The notes: generated by a model from the letters alone, not told the origin. DNA of 14,765 nt from Candidatus Woesearchaeota archaeon (GCA_013329175.1 DUKR01000077.1:1-14765); one strand, 5' to 3'; numbered from the stretch's first letter, positions 8 through 12,124 are shown. Numbers and translations are program-made.

Positions 8-730
8 CTAAGGGGATCTGGAGGCACCCTCTATAAGTTGTGCTTTGATATCTTCAATTTGTTTCTTTATATCCTGCTCATCACTTTCACATAACTTATC
101 AATTCTGGCTTCCATTTTCGTCTCGCCGTCAATGGCTCCATGCTCCCGAGAAAACAATTCATTTAACTCTTTAAGCTTTTGCTTCTCTTGCTCAACAGCC
201 TTTATTTCATCCTTGAGGAGAGGCAGGAGTTGCTCTTTAATTCCTTTCCGCAAATTATTTATGTTTGTGAGAATGCTGGATAATGACTCAATGCTGGCAG
301 ATATTTGCTTTTTCCACTGGCTTCCCCTAAACCATCTGCCGAATTTATCGCCGTATTTTTTTATGCCAAGGCCATGCAATGCTCTAAGCTCAACAAGCAA
401 CTCATCGTGAGCAATTCGTACAAGAGTAGTAATCTCTTCCATTTGCTGCTTGGCAAGTGCATCAAACCTAGCCATTCGCTCCCTTCTCAATGCAACAAGC
501 TTAGCAAGATCCTCCATGAGTTTTCCCTCATTACTGCTAAACTGGAACTCACGCTGTGCGTTATTAATCTCTTTCTCGGTTAAGATCCTCAACTTGCTGA
601 AATTGCTCAAACCTTTTTGTATATCATACGCCCTACCATTTACCCTTTGTTCAACATCCCTTCTTGCATACACAAGCCTCCCCGCCTTAGTGGGATAATA
701 GTTGCGAAGATGCTTACTCCACCATGCCAT
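8..730 (-). CDS. Hypothetical coiled-coil protein of 240 aa. Helical and rich in charged residues, with no TM segment. Its start codon overlaps the stop of the upstream small basic protein gene (ATGA).
   Basis: The ORF is intact across 723 nt. The sequence has long heptad-like stretches (KEQLLPLLKDEIKAVEQEKQKLKELNELF), which I infer are coiled coil. The 4-nt overlap with 730-960 indicates an operon. I recognise no family. Confidence 0.55.
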   Translation of the reverse strand: MAWWSKHLRNYYPTKAGRLVYARRDVEQRVNGRAYDIQKGLSNFSKLRILTEKEINNAQREFQFSSNEGKLMEDLAKLVALRRERMARFDALAKQQMEEITTLVRIAHDELLVELRALHGLGIKKYGDKFGRWFRGSQWKKQISASIESLSSILTNINNLRKGIKEQLLPLLKDEIKAVEQEKQKLKELNELFSREHGAIDGETKMEARIDKLCESDEQDIKKQIEDIKAQLIEGASRSP

Positions 731-960
731 TATCTCTTCGCCTCTTGCTCAGCATGGGCTGCCATAGCCTTCAATTTAGAAAGAGCGCCAATAAAATTCG
801 TTATATGCTTGCACAACTCCTTTTGCTTCTTCGCAGAATGGTGCCTCGACAACGCCAGGGCCCGGTCAACAAAAGGCTCAGCCTTGTCGTGAAGGGAGTC
901 TATTTTTTTGATAAGATGCCTCTTTTTTGCAGAAGAAGTCTTTTTGCTCTTCGTAGGCAT
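730..960 (-). CDS. Small basic protein of 76 aa. It has a Lys/Ser-rich N-terminal tail (PTKSKKTSSAKKRHLIKK) followed by helices. It may bind nucleic acid.
   Basis: The ORF starts at the ATG at 960, right next to a TATA-like box (plus-strand 983-994, read on the minus strand as AAAATATATTAA) placed for leaderless transcription. It is translationally coupled to 8-730. The composition is histone-tail-like and basic. No family recognised. Confidence 0.45.
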   Translation of the reverse strand: MPTKSKKTSSAKKRHLIKKIDSLHDKAEPFVDRALALSRHHSAKKQKELCKHITNFIGALSKLKAMAAHAEQEAKR

Positions 961-1329
961 TCACTTTTTTTCACTGTGCAGATTAATATATTTTTCGGTG
1001 GCCAAGAAAATAAAAAAAAGTATCTGTTAATAAATAAACATATTAAGTATTAAATTTAATGCCGCATTGATAAAAAAATAAATATAAAAAATAAGATTTC
1101 CATTTATAAATACTAAACCTTATTAGTTATAGCGCTTATCTAGATAACATGGAACACTTATTTAAAATAAAACTAGATATATTATTATTTAATAAAAATA
1201 ATTATTAATTAACCAAAAAAGCTAGCGTATTTATTAATGAACGTTTTTTATTAATATTATTTAGTATAACTAAAAAATCAAAAACCTTAAATAGTAATTA
1301 TAATAATAGATAGATAAATTTACTAACAA
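961..1329. promoter_or_regulatory. Divergent, extremely A/T-rich intergenic control region. It has TATA-like boxes about 27 nt upstream of both flanking start codons. It carries a perfect 12-bp palindrome TTATCTAGATAA (1136-1147). TAGATA recurs at 1141, 1174, 1307 and 1311. TTATTAAT occurs three times (1203-1210, 1231-1238, 1248-1255).
   Basis: Read directly from the sequence. The stretch AATTATAATAATAG at 1296-1309 is centred about 27 nt before the ATG at 1330. The stretch TTAATATATTTT at 983-994 (read on the minus strand) is centred about 27 nt before the ATG at 960. This spacing matches archaeal TATA-box/BRE architecture and leaderless transcripts. Confidence 0.4.
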
Positions 1330-1872
1330 ATGAGTAAAAAAATATCCACTTACACCATTGCAGGGCTCTTTACCCATGATTTCTCCAGAAGATATTATCT
1401 TAAAGAGATGGCTGATGCCCTTGGAAAACCTCATCAGACCCTCAAGCCCTATATCGCTGAGCTTGTGAAGCAAAGCATACTTATGGAGGAGAAGCGTGGG
1501 AATCTTCTCGAATACACACTCAACACAGGAAGTCCGTTGGTGGTAGCGTACTTGGCCATCGCAGAGCAAGAGCAAGCGTTAGAGCAAGCGAAAAAGGAGG
1601 GCTTCCTTGTTGAGCTGTTCTCTCTTGGAAGGGAGATGAAGGGGGCGATCATCGCCGCACCCATAGACAAAGAGCGATGGCACGTGGTGCATGTCGGGGG
1701 TGGGGTAATCAATAGGGAACACCCCCGATTTTCTTTTTCTCACTATGGGCAATTTGAGGAGATTCCCTTGGAGGAACTGAAAGGGCTCTATCGCGTTCAC
1801 GTGATATTCAGGGGAGTTGAAGAGGTTGTCAGCGAGTTTGTAAGGAGGTATGCACTGCATGGAATCGCCTAA
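1330..1872 (+). CDS. Hypothetical protein of 180 aa. The N-terminus looks like a winged helix-turn-helix (MADALGKPHQTLKPYIAELVKQSILMEEKRGNLLEY). The C-terminal roughly 90 aa are an unknown domain. I propose it as a candidate transcriptional regulator of the downstream operon.
   Basis: Intact ORF with probable leaderless start. The N-terminal residue pattern resembles MarR/ArsR-type wHTH recognition helix plus wing (inference from memory, not searched). The stop lies 14 nt inside the next gene. Confidence 0.5.
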   Translation: MSKKISTYTIAGLFTHDFSRRYYLKEMADALGKPHQTLKPYIAELVKQSILMEEKRGNLLEYTLNTGSPLVVAYLAIAEQEQALEQAKKEGFLVELFSLGREMKGAIIAAPIDKERWHVVHVGGGVINREHPRFSFSHYGQFEEIPLEELKGLYRVHVIFRGVEEVVSEFVRRYALHGIA

Positions 1873-3316
1873 GGATGAACGCAGAAAGGCAATGCCTGCT
1901 GTAACCTTCCTGCTGCTCATGGCGCTGGCCTTCATCGCAACGGTGCCAGAGCTATCTCTTGCTGCCACTGATGACGGATTGCTTGGAGTGATTGAGCCCA
2001 TCAGCAACCTTTTTGGGCCTATCATTGAACAGCTGAATTCAGTATGGGGGGGAAGTCCGGACGACTCAGCAATCTTTGTTGCCAAATTCGTGCTCTGGAT
2101 ACTTTTGTTTGCTTTACTCTACTACCCCTCAAACATGATTTTCAAGGATGCTGGCAAGGGAGTCAAGGTAGCCATTCCTTTTGTGCTTGCGCTGCTGGGC
2201 ACTGCGCTGATGCCTGCAGAGATCCTCATCAACGTCATGCAGACCTATGCGCTTGCCGGAGCTTTAATCCTGTGGATAATACCGATAGCCGGGACATGGT
2301 TCCTCATGCACAGGGTGCCGCAGGAGGGTGCATGGAAATTTTTACGCCTCATCCTTTACATCATCATCATTTACCTGTTGATGAACATTAGTGAATCAAT
2401 TACTTTCATGCTTGGCGATCTGCCTGAGTGGCTAAGCTATCTTAATCTTGTCATCGGCATCGTCACCATTATGTTCCTCAAGGAGTTGCTTACTATTTTC
2501 AGAGGTTCTGAAGCAGGGGGGGATGGAGGAAGTGGGGGTGGCGGCCTCTTTAACTGGTGGAAGAAAAAAATACCTTCCAGCCCTCAGGCCTTACCAGATG
2601 AAGTTGCAACGGCCCTCCAGGGAGCACAGAAGGCAGAGAAGCTGAGCAAAAAAGAGCAATATCTGCTCCAAGAAATCGAAAATCTTGAAAAACGGGAGAT
2701 TACCAAAACCGAAATGATAATTAATGATATCAACAAAATTGAGTCGGCTTTGCGAACTGGAAAACTAGATGAGCCTGTCAAGACAACCCTTGACAGTATG
2801 GCACGCTACTACAATGAAACAAGAACCATTGAGGATTATATTGAGCGTGAATTTAATCAGGTTCTAAACGATCTTGAACAGGAATATCAAGCGTTACGTC
2901 CACAGAAAGATCTTGCTAAGAGATTAATCAAAGTTGCCAACATAAAATTCCCCTTGAAGGCAGAAAAAGTCAAAAGGTACATTTCCACTATCAATAAGGA
3001 TATCACTAATTATATTCGCCAAATAAGAGAAAAAATAGAACTATATCAAGGAAAGCTAAAACGCCAGTTATCCCTCTTTAGGCAATTCATGCAGCTGGCA
3101 TATCAGCAACTTAATGGATTTGGCAATAGGGGTGCGGCACTAAGCTATCTCAATGATGCAAAAACTACAATGAATCTCATTCATGCTGACTTAGAAGGCA
3201 AGTTAAAGCCACTTACTGAGAAAATAAAAAATGACGTAGGAGGGGTTATCAGAAAGATTAAAGCGATGGAAAATGGAGACAAGAAGCTATTGCTAGGTAA
3301 AATAAACAGGTTTTGA
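1859..3316 (+). CDS. Exported polytopic membrane protein of about 485 aa. It has a Sec signal peptide (cleavage likely after SLAA), about 5 TM helices, a Gly-rich linker (GSEAGGDGGSGGGG) and a roughly 230-aa cytoplasmic coiled-coil tail. It is a paralog of 3328-4329.
   Basis: The ORF track gives 1850. I prefer the ATG at 1859 because a perfect SD AAGGAGGT (1842-1849) lies 9 nt upstream. The ATG at 1892 is also possible. Hydrophobic segments: FVAKFVLWILLFALLYY, VAIPFVLALLGTALMP, ALAGALILWIIPIAGTWFLM, LRLILYIIIIYLLMNI, LVIGIVTIMFL. The C-terminal half is charged and heptad-like with no Pro or Gly runs. Confidence 0.7.
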   Translation: MESPKDERRKAMPAVTFLLLMALAFIATVPELSLAATDDGLLGVIEPISNLFGPIIEQLNSVWGGSPDDSAIFVAKFVLWILLFALLYYPSNMIFKDAGKGVKVAIPFVLALLGTALMPAEILINVMQTYALAGALILWIIPIAGTWFLMHRVPQEGAWKFLRLILYIIIIYLLMNISESITFMLGDLPEWLSYLNLVIGIVTIMFLKELLTIFRGSEAGGDGGSGGGGLFNWWKKKIPSSPQALPDEVATALQGAQKAEKLSKKEQYLLQEIENLEKREITKTEMIINDINKIESALRTGKLDEPVKTTLDSMARYYNETRTIEDYIEREFNQVLNDLEQEYQALRPQKDLAKRLIKVANIKFPLKAEKVKRYISTINKDITNYIRQIREKIELYQGKLKRQLSLFRQFMQLAYQQLNGFGNRGAALSYLNDAKTTMNLIHADLEGKLKPLTEKIKNDVGGVIRKIKAMENGDKKLLLGKINRF

Positions 3317-3327
3317 GGTGCAGATAG

Positions 3328-4329
3328 ATGGTCATGGGAAAAAGCAAATCGAAAAAAAGAGGAGCAGCCAAATGGATAAGAATTGTAGCTGGAACAACTA
3401 TCTTATTCACTCTGTCAATTCCTTCAGCACTTGCCGCAACAGGCGACGTATCCTATGACTTAGGCTCAGTGCTCTACCGCATCATGGGCTGGCTCTTTGT
3501 TGATTTCTCTGACTCTGCCGGAAGCCTGCTCTATGAATTCTATCTCAAGTTTGCCTTGTTTGTGCTGGTCTTCGCCCTCTATTTCTTTGCAGCTACCAAA
3601 GCATTCAAGGGCGATGAGCACAAGAGCATCAGGATAACCATTGCCTTTGTTTTTGCCCTGCTCAGCGTTGCGCTCATTCCTCATCCCATCCTTGCTTCCA
3701 TTGCAGAGGGCTACAAGCTTGTCGGAACCGTTGTTTTCTTCCTGATTCCCGCTATTGGCTTTATCCTGCTCAACCATTATGCCTTTTCAGTCAAGGCGCG
3801 GGCGTACTATGGGGTGAAGGCCATCGTCTACTATGTCATTGCCATGCTCTTCCATAACATGTCAGCAGCAGGAGCTTCCTTTGCCTTTAATTTTCAGCAG
3901 CTTTCAAGCTTTGCTGAAGTCATTTTCATCTTTCTTGCAATTGCCAATCTCTTCATGGCGCTTACCTCAGGCGACGGAGTGGAGGGAGAGGAGGAAGGTG
4001 CTGGAAAATATGATGGCAGCAGCCCCATCTGGAAAGCGCTTGGAGGGCATGAGGATGGCCATGATGATAAAAAGGTGAAGCATGCGGAAAAGGAGGATGT
4101 TGACCATGAAGATGAGGCAAAGAAAAGAAAGCGGGAAGAGGCAGCTGAAGACTTAAAGACGCTGGAAGGCATCAGGGAAAGGATACGCTCGGAATTTAAC
4201 CATCTGGTGACTGCTCTGGATGAAACTGAAAATGACGCAAGAGAAAGGCTCAAGAGGCTTGCAGAGCGCATACGTGAGCTTGATGCAATACAGCGGAGGA
4301 TTAATGCATTGTCCCAGCAGCAAGCATGA
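3328..4329 (+). CDS. Exported polytopic membrane protein of 333 aa. It has a Sec signal peptide (ALAA|TGD), 4-5 TM helices, an acidic His/Asp/Glu/Lys-rich linker and a short cytoplasmic coiled-coil tail. It is a paralog of 1859-3316.
   Basis: SD GAGGTG at 3315-3320 lies 7 nt before the ATG and overlaps the upstream stop. Alignable blocks with the upstream gene: SDSAGSLLYEFYLKFALFVLVFALYFF vs DDSAIFVAKFVLWILLFALLYY, and FKGDEHKSIRITIAFVFALLSVALIPHPIL vs FKDAGKGVKVAIPFVLALLGTALMPAEIL. Both have an LIP..G...L.H motif after TM3. Confidence 0.7.
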   Translation: MVMGKSKSKKRGAAKWIRIVAGTTILFTLSIPSALAATGDVSYDLGSVLYRIMGWLFVDFSDSAGSLLYEFYLKFALFVLVFALYFFAATKAFKGDEHKSIRITIAFVFALLSVALIPHPILASIAEGYKLVGTVVFFLIPAIGFILLNHYAFSVKARAYYGVKAIVYYVIAMLFHNMSAAGASFAFNFQQLSSFAEVIFIFLAIANLFMALTSGDGVEGEEEGAGKYDGSSPIWKALGGHEDGHDDKKVKHAEKEDVDHEDEAKKRKREEAAEDLKTLEGIRERIRSEFNHLVTALDETENDARERLKRLAERIRELDAIQRRINALSQQQA

Positions 4330-4871
4330 CCATGGCTCAGGCAACCCTTTCTCAGGTGCGCAAGGCGTATGAGCAGCTTGTACTATCCATACTCAACGAG
4401 CTAAGAAAGACTATCGAGGATCTCCAGAGGGAAAGAAAAGAGCTTGAGTACAGCCTAAAAGCAGTACTTGAAAAAATCCACGATGAAAAGTTGCAGGAGA
4501 TTTTTAATAACCTCAGTGAGGAAAAAAAAAACGAACATCGAGCAAAAGTTGAGAATTTCAAAAAGCTTCGAAGCACAGGCATAGCAGTAAGCAGGCAGGA
4601 TGAGAAAACTGCTCACACCATCCTTCGTGAAATAAGCCAAAATATAGTTGTCCTTGAGAGCATGGTAACCACGTTGACGGGCATCATGAGGGAATCAAAA
4701 AACCTGTACCATCTTGATACCAATGCATTGTATCAGGGCATTTTAGGTGTCCATGAATCCCTCAAGAAAAGAGAAAAAGTTATCCTCCAAGAGATTGAGC
4801 CGCATGTAACAAGCTTTTTTAATTACTTGGAGCAGGCAAAGATAGAGTTGCTTGCTCAGGTTAATTCCTAA
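4326..4871 (+). CDS. Soluble coiled-coil protein of 181 aa. It is a paralog of the N-terminal domain of 4885-6429.
   Basis: ATGA overlap with the upstream gene indicates translational coupling. Charged heptad-like sequence. It shares blocks with the next gene: SQVRKAYEQLVLSILNELRKTIEDLQRERKEL vs AQLKKKYEELALFIFNQIEQTITELLDERKLL, and NLYHLDTNALYQGILGVHESL vs ALYNLNTNELYSKIMLVHDAI. Confidence 0.65.
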   Translation: MTMAQATLSQVRKAYEQLVLSILNELRKTIEDLQRERKELEYSLKAVLEKIHDEKLQEIFNNLSEEKKNEHRAKVENFKKLRSTGIAVSRQDEKTAHTILREISQNIVVLESMVTTLTGIMRESKNLYHLDTNALYQGILGVHESLKKREKVILQEIEPHVTSFFNYLEQAKIELLAQVNS

Positions 4872-4884
4872 AGGAAACACTATC

Positions 4885-6429
4885 ATGGCAGACCAGCAAC
4901 TGGCACAGCTCAAGAAAAAGTATGAGGAGCTTGCTCTCTTTATCTTTAATCAGATTGAGCAAACGATAACGGAATTACTGGATGAGCGAAAGCTTTTGCA
5001 GCAGAAGGGAAAGGCTGGCATAACCATGCTGCATGTAAACAAAAAGGCAGAAGCGATTGCTTTGAAGGCAAAAATAGCTCTTTCTGCTGATATTCAACAG
5101 CGTTATGATGCTGCTTTGCAGCAATTTGATGCACTTTTGAATAAGGCAACCATTCTTGAGCATCAGGAAGAGCACGCAGTTAAAACCATTCTGCAAAGGC
5201 TTGATACTGAGATTGCTGAACTTCAGGCGTTGGCTAGTCAGGTCACTGCAGCCCATCAAACGAGACCTGCGTTGTATAACCTTAACACAAACGAGCTCTA
5301 TAGTAAAATTATGCTTGTCCATGATGCAATAACCAAGCAGCAGGAGCACGAGCAGAAGTTTAGAGCAGCAAGACAAGAATTTGAACAAGAGCTTGGCCAA
5401 AAAATTCATGAAATTGAAGCTATCCTGAGTGAGAAAGCTATTGCTACTATTGCAACTCCAGTAGTACAAGGTAATACTATTACTACGTCTCAGGGAAGTG
5501 TTCAACCATTAGCCATAGCTCCTGGAGGGCAAAGTGGAGTTATTGGACATGATGAAAAAGATTCAGTCGTGCAGACTGTAAAAATCGACCTGAACAATCT
5601 TGAGCATGCTGATAACATCATTCAATTCCAGCGCAGTGACAGGGAAGTTAGGAAAGCTTTTCAAGTGCTGGAAAAGAAAAGAATGGAAGGTCAGTTGCTG
5701 AAGGCAAAGAAAGCTATAAAGGCAGTCACCACTAAAATTAATATGTATGGACCAAAATACAACAGTGGAGAGTATAAACTGGCATTTATGACAAATGTTG
5801 TCGACCAGTATATGGAGTATATGTATGGGGTACTGTATAGCTATCTTCTTCATGTGGATGAAGCATCGGAATTTATTGCAACCTTATATAGCAGGCTGGA
5901 GACTATTGAAAGCACTAAGCTCACTAAATTTCAAAAAGAGAAAGTTGCAATTATTGCTCACCTCGTGAAGATTGCAGGAGAAACAGACGACAAAAGACCA
6001 GGAAACCTAGGAAAAAAAGGTAAAATTCCTCGGGAATTGCCTGCAAAGATTGATAGCTATGTTACTAATGAACTAAAGATTCTTGAACAAGATACACCAC
6101 CAGGCAGAATCCAAGTAGATATTGACAGGTTACAACTCTTAATTCTTCAGCTTGAAAAAAAACTAAAGAAAGCTATGCATTTAGCTGAACAAAGGATAAA
6201 AGCCTCTTACTTTGCATGGACAAAACGTGGCTATCAAGGGGCTGTAGGGCATCTGAATACCCTCAACATCCTTGTTGATGAGAAAATAAGGTTAGTGAAA
6301 CAAATGATGGATATTGAGCAGCAGATTAGCACAAAGCTTGAAAACCATATCTTCAATTATCTTAATGACAATAAAAAGCTAAAGGACCTTCAAAAGCTGC
6401 TAAGAAAGATACATCTTGGCGAAATTTAG
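4885..6429 (+). CDS. Coiled-coil protein of about 514 aa. The N-terminal roughly 190 aa are homologous to 4326-4871. A Thr/Gly/Gln-rich linker follows (ATPVVQGNTITTSQGSVQPLAIAPGGQSG), then a roughly 300-aa C-terminal domain of unknown function.
   Basis: The ORF track start at 4852 would overlap the upstream gene. The alignment with its paralog begins at MADQQ (ATG 4885), and AGGAAA lies 8 nt upstream, so 4885 is preferred. No TM segment. I recognise no family. Confidence 0.65.
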   Translation: MADQQLAQLKKKYEELALFIFNQIEQTITELLDERKLLQQKGKAGITMLHVNKKAEAIALKAKIALSADIQQRYDAALQQFDALLNKATILEHQEEHAVKTILQRLDTEIAELQALASQVTAAHQTRPALYNLNTNELYSKIMLVHDAITKQQEHEQKFRAARQEFEQELGQKIHEIEAILSEKAIATIATPVVQGNTITTSQGSVQPLAIAPGGQSGVIGHDEKDSVVQTVKIDLNNLEHADNIIQFQRSDREVRKAFQVLEKKRMEGQLLKAKKAIKAVTTKINMYGPKYNSGEYKLAFMTNVVDQYMEYMYGVLYSYLLHVDEASEFIATLYSRLETIESTKLTKFQKEKVAIIAHLVKIAGETDDKRPGNLGKKGKIPRELPAKIDSYVTNELKILEQDTPPGRIQVDIDRLQLLILQLEKKLKKAMHLAEQRIKASYFAWTKRGYQGAVGHLNTLNILVDEKIRLVKQMMDIEQQISTKLENHIFNYLNDNKKLKDLQKLLRKIHLGEI

Positions 6430-6435
6430 GTAACC

Positions 6436-7098
6436 TTATCGGGAAAGTTTTTTTTGAGTAATAGTAGCAGTGTATACAGGACCAGCTGACCGTGCTCCCG
6501 CTGCGCCAGTAACATAGCTTGGAATCAGTAAAGAGGAGGATGGATTATTAATGATCTCAGCAATCACTGCATTTAACTGGCTTACATTCTCTGGAAAGGG
6601 CTTGCTGGGGTCAACTTTTATAACTGCTGTGTTGCCTGCTGCATCTTGAAACATCTCTACGTTATCACCTAGTGGGACTATTGCATTAAGATACGTTTGA
6701 TCATTTGGACCTTTAATTAATTCTAGTTTAGGTCCAAGATTCTGAGCTGGACCAATTACTTGAACATAGTCAGCTGTTACCCTAAGAAAATCCGCTAAAT
6801 TATCCCTTCCTTCAACTGTGACATATTTACCTACCGTATTCCTTACTTTAAGAGCAGTGTTGTAGCCATCAGTTATAACATTCTCACCTAGCTTAGTAAC
6901 AGAGTTAGCAGCATCCCACTTATCCTCCCCATATTTAATAACACTACTTACTCCACTTACTATGTAAGGTAGGGAATAAAGGGCAAGGGCACCGGCAGCC
7001 ATAAATTTAATAATCTTGCCTGCCTTTCTTTTTGACTTTTGTGGTGCTATTAAATCTTGTAGAGTTTTGGACATTTCCATAGCAAATCCAGAAAGCAT
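6436..7098 (-). CDS. Membrane-anchored exported protein of 214-220 aa. It has a single N-terminal TM/signal anchor (IIKFMAAGALALYSLPYIVSGV) and an extracytoplasmic beta-rich domain. It sits immediately downstream of the SPFH gene.
   Basis: Intact ORF. A perfect archaeal TATA TTTATATA (minus-strand reading of 7105-7112) is centred about 27 nt upstream of the in-frame ATG at 7080 (MEMSKTL). The true start may therefore be 7080 with a leaderless mRNA, or the gene is co-transcribed with SPFH. I recognise no family; the position is analogous to NfeD partners of SPFH proteins. Confidence 0.55.
   Translation of the reverse strand: MLSGFAMEMSKTLQDLIAPQKSKRKAGKIIKFMAAGALALYSLPYIVSGVSSVIKYGEDKWDAANSVTKLGENVITDGYNTALKVRNTVGKYVTVEGRDNLADFLRVTADYVQVIGPAQNLGPKLELIKGPNDQTYLNAIVPLGDNVEMFQDAAGNTAVIKVDPSKPFPENVSQLNAVIAEIINNPSSSLLIPSYVTGAAGARSAGPVYTATITQKKLSR
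6448..6455 (+). terminator. Oligo-T tract (T8) 19 nt downstream of the stop of 4885-6429. It is a candidate archaeal intrinsic terminator. It lies inside the last codons of the convergent minus-strand gene.
   Basis: The T8 run is read directly. Archaeal RNA polymerase terminates at oligo-T tracts (established). The assignment of function here is inference. Confidence 0.3.
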
Positions 7099-7147
7099 GA
7101 CTAGTATATAAATCTTCCGATTTGTAACTATCAGTAAGTAGTTAATT

Positions 7148-9256: not shown

Positions 9257-9505
9257 ATGAGGTTTAAGGAGTATATCTCTGACAGGCCGGCAGTCATCAG
9301 GGCAGTCAAGGTTCTTGGCAACTGTGACCTCATGCTGCACATCGCAACAAAGGATGCTTCAGAGCTTCACAAGACTATCAAAGGCATCTATAAGGCATTT
9401 GTTGATATCATCACAGGCTACCAGGCATGGGGAGCCTACAAAGAGCACTTTTTCACAATCTTTCCTGCTGTTGTTTCTGACAAAGAAAATGCAGAGCAGA
9501 AGTGA
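9257..9505 (+). CDS. Small protein of 82 aa (95 aa from 9218). It has a possible beta-alpha-beta ACT/RAM-like pattern (AVIRAVKVLGNCDLMLHIATKDASELHKTIKGIY). It may be co-transcribed with pth2.
   Basis: The amphipathic periodicity is protein-like. It has the same orientation as pth2 and gpmA, with only 48 nt and no TATA box before pth2. The resemblance to Lrp/AsnC ligand-binding domains is weak and from memory only. Confidence 0.35.
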   Translation: MRFKEYISDRPAVIRAVKVLGNCDLMLHIATKDASELHKTIKGIYKAFVDIITGYQAWGAYKEHFFTIFPAVVSDKENAEQK

Positions 9506-10714: not shown

Positions 10715-12124
10715 GGATATTCATGCCGCCCATTGGCATCGTAATCGTTCACTATCATGAAGCTTTTTCTTCATTCTCCTCCGCCTCAATCCATGCGTTC
10801 CATGGCGGCTCATTCCAGAAAAACGGGCCATTACCTGGGGCTTCCTGCCACAAGCGTCGCTTCTGTTCTCTCTGTTTTTGCCAGACGTAACATTGCTATT
10901 TACAATTCCGTCATGCACTGTATAGTCCCTCATCCTTCATACACGCTCGTGCAGCGCACTGACTTTTGCCAATGGCTGCGTGCATTTCTGTCTTCAGCGT
11001 TTTTCACCCGTTACAGCAGAAAACCTGTGTGCCGTCAATTACGCGAGCATTGGCAGTGTTGTGGTGGCGAAGGTCGTGGGGGGTTGTCCCTTACGGGGGT
11101 GCGACCTCATCGTCCCGCTTCATCTCCATGCGAGCCGACGGCACACCAATGGTTTTCTGCTCGAGTGAAAAACGCTAAGGAAAACGCCAAGGCCTTCATC
11201 ACCTCCAAAGAGAAATGCAGCAACAATCGCTTCAGGAAAGTGAACAATTATGGAGAAATGCATTGATATTGTGACACCGCGATGGATTGCGTCTGCTGAC
11301 ACCTCTCCACGCATTTCGCCTATTGAATAATTGCGGCTACTGTCACATAAATACCGCAATTATCCATACTTGGCATCCCGACAAACCCTAAGCTCCGCCT
11401 CTTCGCCTGCATCAACGACAGGAGACAGGAAGAGGCAACAATGGCATCCTGCGCTCCCCCGCATCACGAGGGCTGATGTGAAGGAACTCAAGCGCTGGGT
11501 GCTAAGGCAGGGGCATGCCCGCAACATCTTCGCCACCGCAACCAGATGCATGGGCTTCTGTAACGATGAATCAAGAAGTATAGGCAGCAGGCCATCGCCT
11601 ATTGCGTACTCCTTCACTTTCTTGAAAAGCCCTGCCCGGGAGGAAGGATACAGGCTCGCTGGATAGCCATGAGTTAAGGCTTTGAGGGATATTGGCAGGC
11701 AGGCTCGTGGAAAGCTGGCATTCCCAAAAAACTCAGTAGAAAAAAAGGCATTAGCCATGCCTCCCGTCGCATCCACACTCAATTCGTAACTCCCTTCTTT
11801 TCGTTTCAGGCAATCCACTCAATGCACAATCCGAGGTAAACAAAAAAGCCTCAGCTGGCCAGCAGGGCATGTGTTGCAGCCATTGCCGCAGTGTAGCGCG
11901 CTGCACCGTCAGGCATGGAGGATGGGCGCTGGCAGCAGTGCACGACGGAATTTCCATCATCAGGATTTGCAGCACAAACAGGGGAGGGAGGAAAAATAAA
12001 GGGATGGGATGAGAAAGAAGCCACAGGCAATGAGCTTTTAGGGAATGCCTTTTCGGGAGCGATGCCCATCACAGTTACAAAGAGGCAGGCAACTTCATAA
12101 AGGTGAAGTACTACCCTATTGCCC
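10715..12124. other. A 1.4-kb region with no credible protein-coding ORF on either strand. It could be a decayed pseudogene remnant or a long structured ncRNA.
   Basis: All six frames are broken into ORFs of at most 169 aa with junk-like Cys/Arg/Ser/His-rich translations that overlap each other on both strands. The region is not A/T-rich like true intergenic DNA here. Confidence 0.3.

Follow-up and report, generated by a model that had tools for sequence, protein, structure and literature searches.

Architecture of the locus

We analysed a stretch of 14,765 nucleotides from a Candidatus Woesearchaeota archaeon (GCA_013329175.1, DUKR01000077.1:1-14765), in the following referred to as the window, focusing on the A/T-rich spacer at positions 961-1329 that separates two divergently oriented gene units and on the question of how these units might be controlled. 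The left unit starts with a gene for a basic ORFan protein of 76 amino acids (730-960, minus strand), followed by a gene for an ORFan protein of 240 amino acids (8-730). The right unit consists of five tightly coupled genes on the plus strand (1330-6429), the first of which (1330-1872) encodes a 180-amino-acid protein composed of a winged helix and a degenerate domain resembling minimal nucleotidyltransferases (MNT). The DNA originates from a Woesearchaeota (DPANN) population present in groundwater metagenomes, the 180-amino-acid protein being identical to a Woesearchaeota entry in GenBank and to proteins encoded on groundwater contigs. The window also encodes an archaeal PTH2 and a protein of the glycosyltransferase-family-3/pyrimidine-nucleoside-phosphorylase type, which we read as an archaeal AMP phosphorylase.

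The spacer comprises 369 base pairs (bp; 170 A, 132 T, 36 C and 31 G), corresponding to 18% G+C compared to 46% G+C in the coding sequence of the window. It is both the longest and the most A/T-rich spacer of the window, the other spacers having lengths of 6-306 bp and 27-52% G+C, and the A/T-rich divergent region proposed in a preliminary description of this DNA is real in this respect. In all contigs of the same population that span the spacer (L001, L002, L004-L007, L009, L010, L035 and L036), its sequence is that of the window, and L003, L008 and L034, which are partial, match it as far as they extend. The contig L033, a 2-kb JGI contig, is identical to the window from position 1241, i.e. 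inside an AACGTT sequence, rightward, while its first part (L033:1-115) is unrelated to window positions 1126-1240. L034, encoding the same protein variant as L033, agrees with the window from position 1215.

Two putative core promoters of archaeal type

The left core promoter (984-997, minus strand) contains the TATA box ATATATTA at 984-991, placed at -31 to -24 of the ATG at 960, and a CGAAAA sequence at 992-997 resembling a B recognition element (BRE), together showing the geometry of the family consensus promoter described below. In the right core promoter (1293-1305, plus strand), the BRE-like AGTAAT is combined with the TATA box TTATAATA (1298-1305) at -32 to -25 relative to the start codon at 1330, a position that fits a leaderless transcript. 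The preliminary description had placed TATA-like boxes ahead of both ATGs, where they are indeed present, and had derived from them divergent promoters producing leaderless transcripts. The spacing of BRE and TATA supports this suggestion, the geometry on the right side being common to 53 homologous promoters. As in other divergent archaeal regions with leaderless BRE/TATA promoters, an A-rich BRE and an 8-bp TATA box centred about 27-28 nucleotides upstream of the start codon are found on both sides, agreeing with the distance of ~26-28 nucleotides and the purine- or A-rich BRE typical for leaderless archaeal transcripts. No GGAGG-like Shine-Dalgarno sequence is present upstream of the ATGs at 1330 and 960; the internal operon gene at 1859 has the Shine-Dalgarno sequence AGGAGG instead. 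Judged by these sequence features, both flanking transcripts are probably leaderless. In contrast to known divergent regions of this type, the spacer has an unusual length (369 bp) and A/T-richness for its genome, and about 295 bp between the two core promoters have no assigned role.

On the right side, an alternative family-like BRE/TATA combination, AAAACC-TTAAATA, is found at 1281-1293 (plus strand), comparable to AAACCTTTAAATA in the homologous locus L017 and AAACCTTTATAAA in L014. Use of this TATA box (1287-1293) would mean a leader of ~14 nucleotides rather than a leaderless transcript. Scans for bacterial sigma-70 promoters and terminators were uninformative in this A/T-rich archaeal DNA, in which TATA-like boxes arise everywhere. 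The same type of BRE/TATA promoter is also present ahead of the gene for a 220-amino-acid protein of the window (7102-7120, minus strand). There, the BRE/TATA sequence cGGAAGATTTATATA (7106-7120, minus strand) lies only 7-14 nucleotides ahead of the annotated ATG (7098), and for this gene an internal methionine, Met7 or Met9 (7080 or 7074), is probably the real leaderless start.

The 180-amino-acid protein as a divergent member of a DPANN family

A word-index search with the 180-amino-acid protein returned only the protein itself, and 43 relatives with 28-52% sequence identity, most of them being 180-210 amino acids long, emerged from an exhaustive search of 1.8 billion representative proteins with HMMER. 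Among 41 aligned sequences, i.e. the window protein and 40 relatives, 23 match the Pol-beta/NTP_transf_2 families of minimal nucleotidyltransferases and several match helix-turn-helix (HTH) families, i.e. IclR, HTH_20, TrmB, MarR or ArsR, within the N-terminal 100 residues. An AlphaFold2 model based on the alignment of the relatives shows a canonical winged helix with a predicted local distance difference test score (pLDDT) of 91.7, a single-sequence model being unusable (pLDDT 45). A profile search against the PDB returned Lrp/AsnC and ArsR regulators as well as nucleotidyltransferases. The protein is a divergent member of a DPANN family of ~196-amino-acid proteins combining a winged HTH (wHTH) with an MNT domain, with homology to this family over the N-terminal winged helix, and its earlier assignment as a wHTH-like protein was right.

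The window protein is 16 amino acids shorter than its relatives and has LGR and AIIAAP...IDKERWHVVHV in place of the catalytic signature FGS...DIDLL. The MNT motifs hG[GS] and Dx[DE] are absent from it, and it shows no Pfam match to nucleotidyltransferases and belongs, by sequence, to none of the Pfam HTH families. Its recognition helix PHQTLKPY is unchanged from that of the relatives. Archaeal winged-helix repressors of the MarR, ArsR and PadR type bind palindromes between TATA box and transcription start site; the window protein differs from these in having a C-terminal domain derived from a nucleotidyltransferase instead of a MarR-type dimerisation helix and in the lacking Pfam HTH membership.

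The family gene is directly followed by a gene for a HEPN-like protein of 155 amino acids in 17 of the 22 genomic loci, both genes overlapping by ~22 nucleotides. A profile of this partner found nothing in a six-frame translation of the window. Across DPANN phyla the HEPN-like partner (L011-L031, e.g. L013:4569-5036) is extremely conserved (...SNMWLATTKYYIEYFAVYSVLMKIGIKCEIHDCTI...LRIDNQYYLKN); it scores only below threshold for PF05168, and no obvious Rx4-6H motif was seen. A DPANN-specific and unusually conserved MNT/HEPN cluster, cls.004259 (NEQ050), was reported in a 'house-keeping context' (Makarova, Wolf and Koonin 2019, PMC6393860), and the module of the HEPN-like partner may correspond to this cluster. 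Both are DPANN-wide, unusually conserved modules of MNT and HEPN in which the partner is strongly conserved between phyla. Compared by description, they differ in that cls.004259 is an MNT-HEPN fusion, whereas the family studied here has two overlapping genes and additionally a wHTH, which is unmentioned in PMC6393860.

A conserved cassette of promoter and putative operators in the wHTH-MNT family

We aligned the promoters of the family without gaps, comparing the region from -36 to +20 around the start codon at 22 genome loci (L011-L032) from Woese-, Pace-, Nano- and Aenigmarchaeota and at 43 metagenome loci (listed among L037-L078), resulting in 53 non-redundant promoters. These contain a cassette that is nearly base-for-base constant, i.e. 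the BRE a/gAAAg, the TATA box TTTATAAA at -31 to -24, aaGTAAnTAAanTTACCAa and ATGGTAAAAAAAaTTACt; the position of the TATA box implies a leaderless transcript as far as can be judged from spacing. Between TATA box and start codon lies a 16-bp palindrome, RGTAA-N6-TTACY, at -18 to -3, which we call operator O1 and which is exact in 43 of the 53 promoters. A second copy of it at +3 to +18, operator O2, is exact in 49/53 promoters, with the centres of O1 and O2 being 22 bp apart. Scanning ~130 kb of the 22 genome loci with a position weight matrix (PWM) of O1, the only other strong matches were to O2 of the same gene, on both strands (+2 to +19), showing that the element is specific to the wHTH-MNT gene and no general promoter feature. 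A description of this operator was not found in a limited search of the literature.

Since O2 overlaps the beginning of the coding sequence, it is mirrored in the codon usage of the family. Codon 2 is GTA in 51/51 cases encoding Val (background 30%), codon 5 is always NTT although the residue varies between Ile, Val, Phe and Leu, and codon 6 is ACT or ACC in all 52 cases encoding Thr and never ACA (background 47%). This pattern indicates that O2 is under selection at the DNA level within codons 2-6, the N-terminus having the sequence MVKKIT. O2 thereby shows that a DNA-binding site is able to fix the sequence of an N-terminal peptide, which is not surprising in principle.

Dimers of the family product would occupy O1 and O2 at a distance of about two helical turns, bracketing the transcription start site, and the operator-bound dimers would block the recruitment of RNA polymerase, resulting in autorepression of the kind known from antitoxins. 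By analogy, autorepression via O1 and O2 is the most likely mode of control in this family. A precedent is the bacterial MNT antitoxin SO_3165, which has been shown to bind its own promoter, containing two palindromes, and to repress it (PMC4621449). The DPANN family resembles this system in the MNT domain, in the HEPN-like gene directly downstream with its short overlap and in the two palindromes overlapping the core promoter of the MNT gene. It differs in possessing an N-terminal wHTH, SO_3165 being without a recognisable DNA-binding domain, and in that its operators bracket a leaderless start and reach into codons 1-6. The window copy differs further, having neither a HEPN partner nor the G-S and D-x-D catalytic motifs and heading an operon for membrane and coiled-coil proteins. 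The conserved cassette represents a concrete and testable cis element in organisms without studied transcription regulation, and we consider this comparative by-product, a family-wide twin operator over a leaderless start, more interesting than the spacer itself.

A putative vestige of the cassette ahead of the right unit

The best match of the O1 PWM in the spacer is AGATAGATAAATTTACTA at 1308-1325 (plus strand), scoring 11.8 bits compared to 1.9 bits for the runner-up. Such a match has a probability of P=0.014 anywhere in the spacer and of P=0.0002 within the 11 offsets adjoining the ATG. Kept from the cassette are TAAATTTAC as conserved core at 1315-1323, with the following T at 1324 giving TAAATTTACT, ahead of the ATG and AGTAAAAAAA at 1333-1342 after it. 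An inverted repeat TTTACT-N8-AGTAAA at 1319-1338 (plus strand) spans the start codon, its equivalent in the family being TTACC-N4-GGTAA. Two parts have changed. The left half of O1 is GATAG, part of the tandem overlapping TAGATA repeat TAGATAGATA (1307-1316, plus strand), which fills the slot of the left half-site with GATAG at 1309-1313 lying 6 nucleotides before TTAC at 1320-1323, and O2 has lost its right half, ATATCC replacing ATTACC.

It is plausible from this arrangement that the proximal TAGATA repeat sits in a degenerate operator slot between TATA box and start, and likewise plausible that the 180-amino-acid protein exerts a vestigial autoregulation. With the left half of O1 being replaced and the right half of O2 being lost, autoregulation would here probably be weakened or re-tuned. 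The preliminary description had interpreted the TAGATA sites, the central palindrome and the repeats as operators of the wHTH protein, possibly autoregulatory. Of this proposal, autoregulation is plausible by homology, the proximal tandem TAGATAGATA lying in the slot of the left half of O1. The family element is RGTAA-N6-TTACY, represented by TAAATTTAC in the window, and not TAGATA, and the roles assigned to the central palindrome and to TTATTAAT are unsupported.

TAGATA copies, central palindrome and repeats

The spacer contains TAGATA on the plus strand at 1141, 1174, 1307 and 1311 and its complement TATCTA at 1137, a single other copy being present in the 14.7-kb window (6116). The copy at 1174-1179 (plus strand) is isolated and lies within CTAGATA. 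As a motif named beforehand, TAGATA occurs in five strand-collapsed copies compared to 0.51 expected, a number reached by none of 5000 shuffles of the spacer preserving dinucleotides, the background used for all these chance tests. The probability that any G/C-containing hexamer reaches five copies is P=0.086 and that any such hexamer reaches four copies on one strand P=0.11. The excess of TAGATA claimed earlier, tested by shuffle enrichment, thus exists for the named motif and becomes marginal once corrected for the post hoc choice of motif. As had been reported, TTATCTAGATAA at 1136-1147 is a perfect palindrome of 12 bp; a perfect palindrome of at least 12 bp has a probability of P=0.56, or of 0.15 if G/C is required. 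All three copies of TTATTAAT are likewise present (1202, 1231 and 1248), the first one being shifted by one position against the coordinate given before, and their recurrence is at chance level (any 8-mer in three copies, P=0.67). They lie in a low-complexity A/T stretch (1181-1255) together with a 20-nucleotide tandem repeat of 1.9 copies, none of which goes beyond chance. A joint statistic, designed after the data had been seen and asking for a G/C-containing perfect palindrome of at least 12 bp with its half-site hexamer recurring at least three times elsewhere, gives P=0.0056. Chance is exceeded, modestly, only when palindrome and recurring half-site are considered together.

What little G and C the spacer has is concentrated in short palindromes. 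TGGCCA (999-1004), AGCGCT (1131-1136) and GCTAGC (1221-1226) constitute three G/C-rich 6-bp palindromes compared to 0.30 expected (P=0.0026, post hoc), and CTAG is found at 1140, 1173 and 1222, i.e. three times compared to 0.56 expected (P=0.013, post hoc). AGCGCT runs into the central palindrome, both occupying 1131-1147 without strand assignment, and the centre of the latter (1141.5) is 3.5 bp off the midpoint of the spacer. It is enclosed by an imperfect inverted repeat, AAATAAGATTTCCAT (1089-1103) and ATGGAACACTTATTT (1149-1163), with 13 of 15 positions matched and a gap of 45 nucleotides (P about 0.018 with parameters chosen post hoc). Taken singly, these post hoc oddities are weak; in combination, they hint at sites of dyad symmetry embedded in A/T-rich DNA.

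The geometry of the central palindrome, TTATC-N2-GATAA, matches the junction between O1 and O2 and not the family operator, orientation and spacing of the half-sites being wrong for the latter. It is about 150 bp away from each TATA box, unique in the window even with two mismatches allowed, and not present in any of the 22 homologous loci taken from genomes (L011-L032). Because the flanking genes tested are ORFans and the recovered contigs are identical, neither the central palindrome nor the third TAGATA (1174) has a counterpart elsewhere. Both elements may be lineage-specific, either assisting as accessory sites of this or a different factor or being without function.

Other candidates for the content of the spacer were tried and rejected. 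An RNA gene or structure was not detected; neither the gathering threshold nor a cutoff of E up to 1 yielded an Rfam match, tRNAs were absent, and the fold z-scores were -0.83 and +0.37. A hidden protein-coding gene was rejected, no open reading frame (ORF) of at least 20 amino acids lying wholly inside the spacer. Duplication of a promoter module (1051-1080 compared to 1315-1344, with AAACCTTA at 1115 and 1281) was dismissed with P=0.65 for the best local alignment and no second copy found with the family PWM. A viral or plasmid origin of the island was rejected as well, with no relatives in IMG/VR and only three weak PHROG matches (E 0.001-0.007, function-unknown, 181-amino-acid protein).

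Interpretation of the spacer

Taken together, the spacer is most likely an ordinary two-way archaeal promoter region with the right promoter being a decayed copy of the DPANN promoter-plus-operator cassette. To the reading that this is a shared divergent control region, in which the right promoter would be descended from the wHTH-MNT cassette and the window gene would be a diverged copy of the family gene, we assign a probability of roughly 0.6. The left BRE/TATA (984-997, minus strand) would drive the genes for the 76- and 240-amino-acid ORFan proteins, and the right one at 1293-1305, or alternatively that at 1281-1293, would drive the five-gene unit led by the winged-helix protein. From an ancestral cassette of BRE, TATA, O1, leaderless ATG and O2, only the central part would have been kept, and the gene itself would have kept the recognition helix while losing its HEPN partner and the motifs for nucleotidyltransferase catalysis. 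The proximal TAGATA repeat would belong to the operator region between TATA box and start. The window gene looks like a component of a toxin-antitoxin system that lost enzyme activity and partner and was recruited to head a lineage-specific cell-envelope operon, which would again be no surprise in principle.

Several points weigh against this reading, every functional step of which is inferred from sequence. Searching the whole window by nhmmer with a composition-corrected profile of the family promoter gave no significant match (E=2.7), the claim of a vestige therefore resting on the position-restricted PWM test. No exact RGTAA-N6-TTACY is present anywhere in the window, matches with one mismatch occur at chance level, and the half-sites across the ATG are separated by N8 compared to N4 in the family. 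Because the spacings differ and an exact palindrome is lacking, the retained recognition helix faces no canonical operator here. The promoter model does not account for the ~295 bp between the core promoters. Finally, in L033 the right promoter adjoins a sequence unrelated to the window, which could mean that the distal part is dispensable or that L033 is a chimeric assembly or a structural variant without the central palindrome.

The main competing explanations concern these ~295 bp. They could be neutral A/T-rich filler, e.g. decayed or horizontally acquired DNA, in which the palindrome would be due to chance, TAGATAGATA to slippage duplication and TTATTAAT to low complexity. This is a possibility to be taken seriously, though we would not expect it to be correct: the values for palindrome length (P=0.56), any hexamer (P=0.086) and any 8-mer (P=0.67) agree with it, as do the lack of a significant internal duplication (P=0.65), of an RNA structure signal and of an Rfam match, the ability of the family promoters to work within ~45 bp and the existence of a contig, L033, lacking everything left of 1241. 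DPANN genomes are compact, however, the other spacers of the window (6-306 bp) are not A/T-rich, and several weak post hoc signals coincide in the spacer, i.e. the joint statistic (0.0056), the 6-bp palindromes (0.0026), CTAG (0.013) and the inverted repeat (about 0.018). The opposite view is the full model of the preliminary description, according to which all TAGATA half-sites, including TTATCTAGATAA and the copy at 1174, are operators of the 180-amino-acid wHTH protein with distal and proximal sites cooperating, e.g. by DNA looping, on the right and perhaps also the left unit. The joint statistic of palindrome and half-site (P=0.0056) argues for it, as does the location of five of the six TAGATA copies of the window inside the spacer, and the palindrome, 3.5 bp off the spacer midpoint, is roughly equidistant from both TATA boxes. 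GATAA and GATAG are moreover similar to the half-site RGTAA of the family, the left half of O1 in one of its promoters (L043) being GATAA, and a half-site PWM ranks the right arm of the palindrome fourth in the spacer. We nevertheless regard the model as unlikely, given that the motif count alone yields P=0.086 after post hoc correction, that TTATC-N2-GATAA corresponds to the junction between two family operators and not to an operator, that the recognition helix is the same as in relatives using GGTAA/TTACC, and that the palindrome is ~150 bp away from either TATA box and absent from the 22 genome-derived homologous loci.

Two further explanations have to be weighed. The spacer could act as a replication origin, with initiator sites on both sides of an A/T-rich unwinding region, or as a centromere-like site bound by the wHTH protein, in an integrated or chromosomal ORFan island. 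AspA binds the centromere of pNOB8, and the structural matches found for the wHTH domain include AspA and TubR; the extreme A/T-richness with dyad elements, the ORFan nature of all island genes tested and the breaking of several assemblies within or just left of the spacer would fit as well. Yet the wHTH matches extend unspecifically over MarR, ArsR and PadR regulators, A/T-rich DNA of low coverage can be expected to break contigs, and relatives in IMG/VR are lacking. The window encodes no Orc1/Cdc6, Rep, ParA, ParB or integrase domain, and the spacer has no repeated boxes resembling origin recognition boxes or containing G/C, so that only the A/T-richness fits an origin. An AspA/ParB/ParA-type locus is not apparent either, the downstream genes encoding membrane and coiled-coil proteins without ParA/ParB domains, and we consider an origin or centromere very improbable. 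Hardly any weight falls on the idea that the centre of the spacer encodes a small transcript or a micro-ORF, e.g. the 19-codon ORF starting with the ATG at 1149 just past the palindrome and preceded by a TATA-like box at 1120-1131. The succession of TATA-like box, palindrome and ATGG at 1120-1152 does mimic the layout of the family promoters, and the octamer AAACCTTA precedes both TAGATAA-type elements (1115 and 1281), but the likeness of the two modules is not significant, TATA-like boxes are ubiquitous in A/T-rich DNA, and the spacer contains no ORF of at least 20 amino acids wholly inside it and no structure or Rfam signal.

Going beyond a control region with a cassette-derived right promoter, one may formulate a broader model as one joint claim, according to which a previously undescribed twin-palindrome operator over a leaderless start, setting the first six codons (MVKKIT), would control the DPANN wHTH-MNT/HEPN-like module, the dead and partner-less window copy would have been exapted as a transcription factor for the ORFan membrane/coiled-coil operon, and the operator would have been re-tooled into TAGATA-type sites, including the central palindrome coordinating both promoters. 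As a whole, we hold this chain of events to be speculative and rather unlikely.

Neighbouring genes and contig ends

The genes of the right unit behind the regulator (1859-6429) form two pairs of paralogues, one encoding membrane and the other coiled-coil proteins. The 485- and 333-amino-acid paralogues have a signal peptide, multiple transmembrane segments and a coiled-coil tail (E=4e-18), and the 181- and 514-amino-acid paralogues are coiled-coil proteins (E=8e-19). The 333-, 181- and 514-amino-acid proteins, scanned against Pfam and PHROGs, have no curated match there. For the 180-, 485- and 240-amino-acid proteins no close relatives, and thus no orthologous clusters, were found among 5.8 billion proteins or in GTDB species genomes, and the 485-amino-acid protein of the right unit and the 240-amino-acid protein of the left unit, both tested, are ORFans.

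Strain differences cluster in and just past the gene for the 514-amino-acid protein (about 5085-5154 and 6506-6550). Between the genes for a 222-amino-acid membrane protein and PTH2, a gene for an 82-amino-acid protein with a weak AsnC_trans_reg match is called in sister contigs (9257-9505, plus strand). The spacer at 11819-12124 (306 bp, 52% G+C) contains no called gene and no Rfam match and could hold a small gene or RNA. Independent assemblies (ENA, JGI, NCBI and Logan) all stop at 0-140 bp to the left of position 1 of the window (L001:1-139), and another four contigs begin or are broken within the A/T-rich spacer, i.e. at 1189, 1215, 1241 and 1294, suggesting that the recurrent contig ends reflect a repeat, strain heterogeneity or a drop in coverage.

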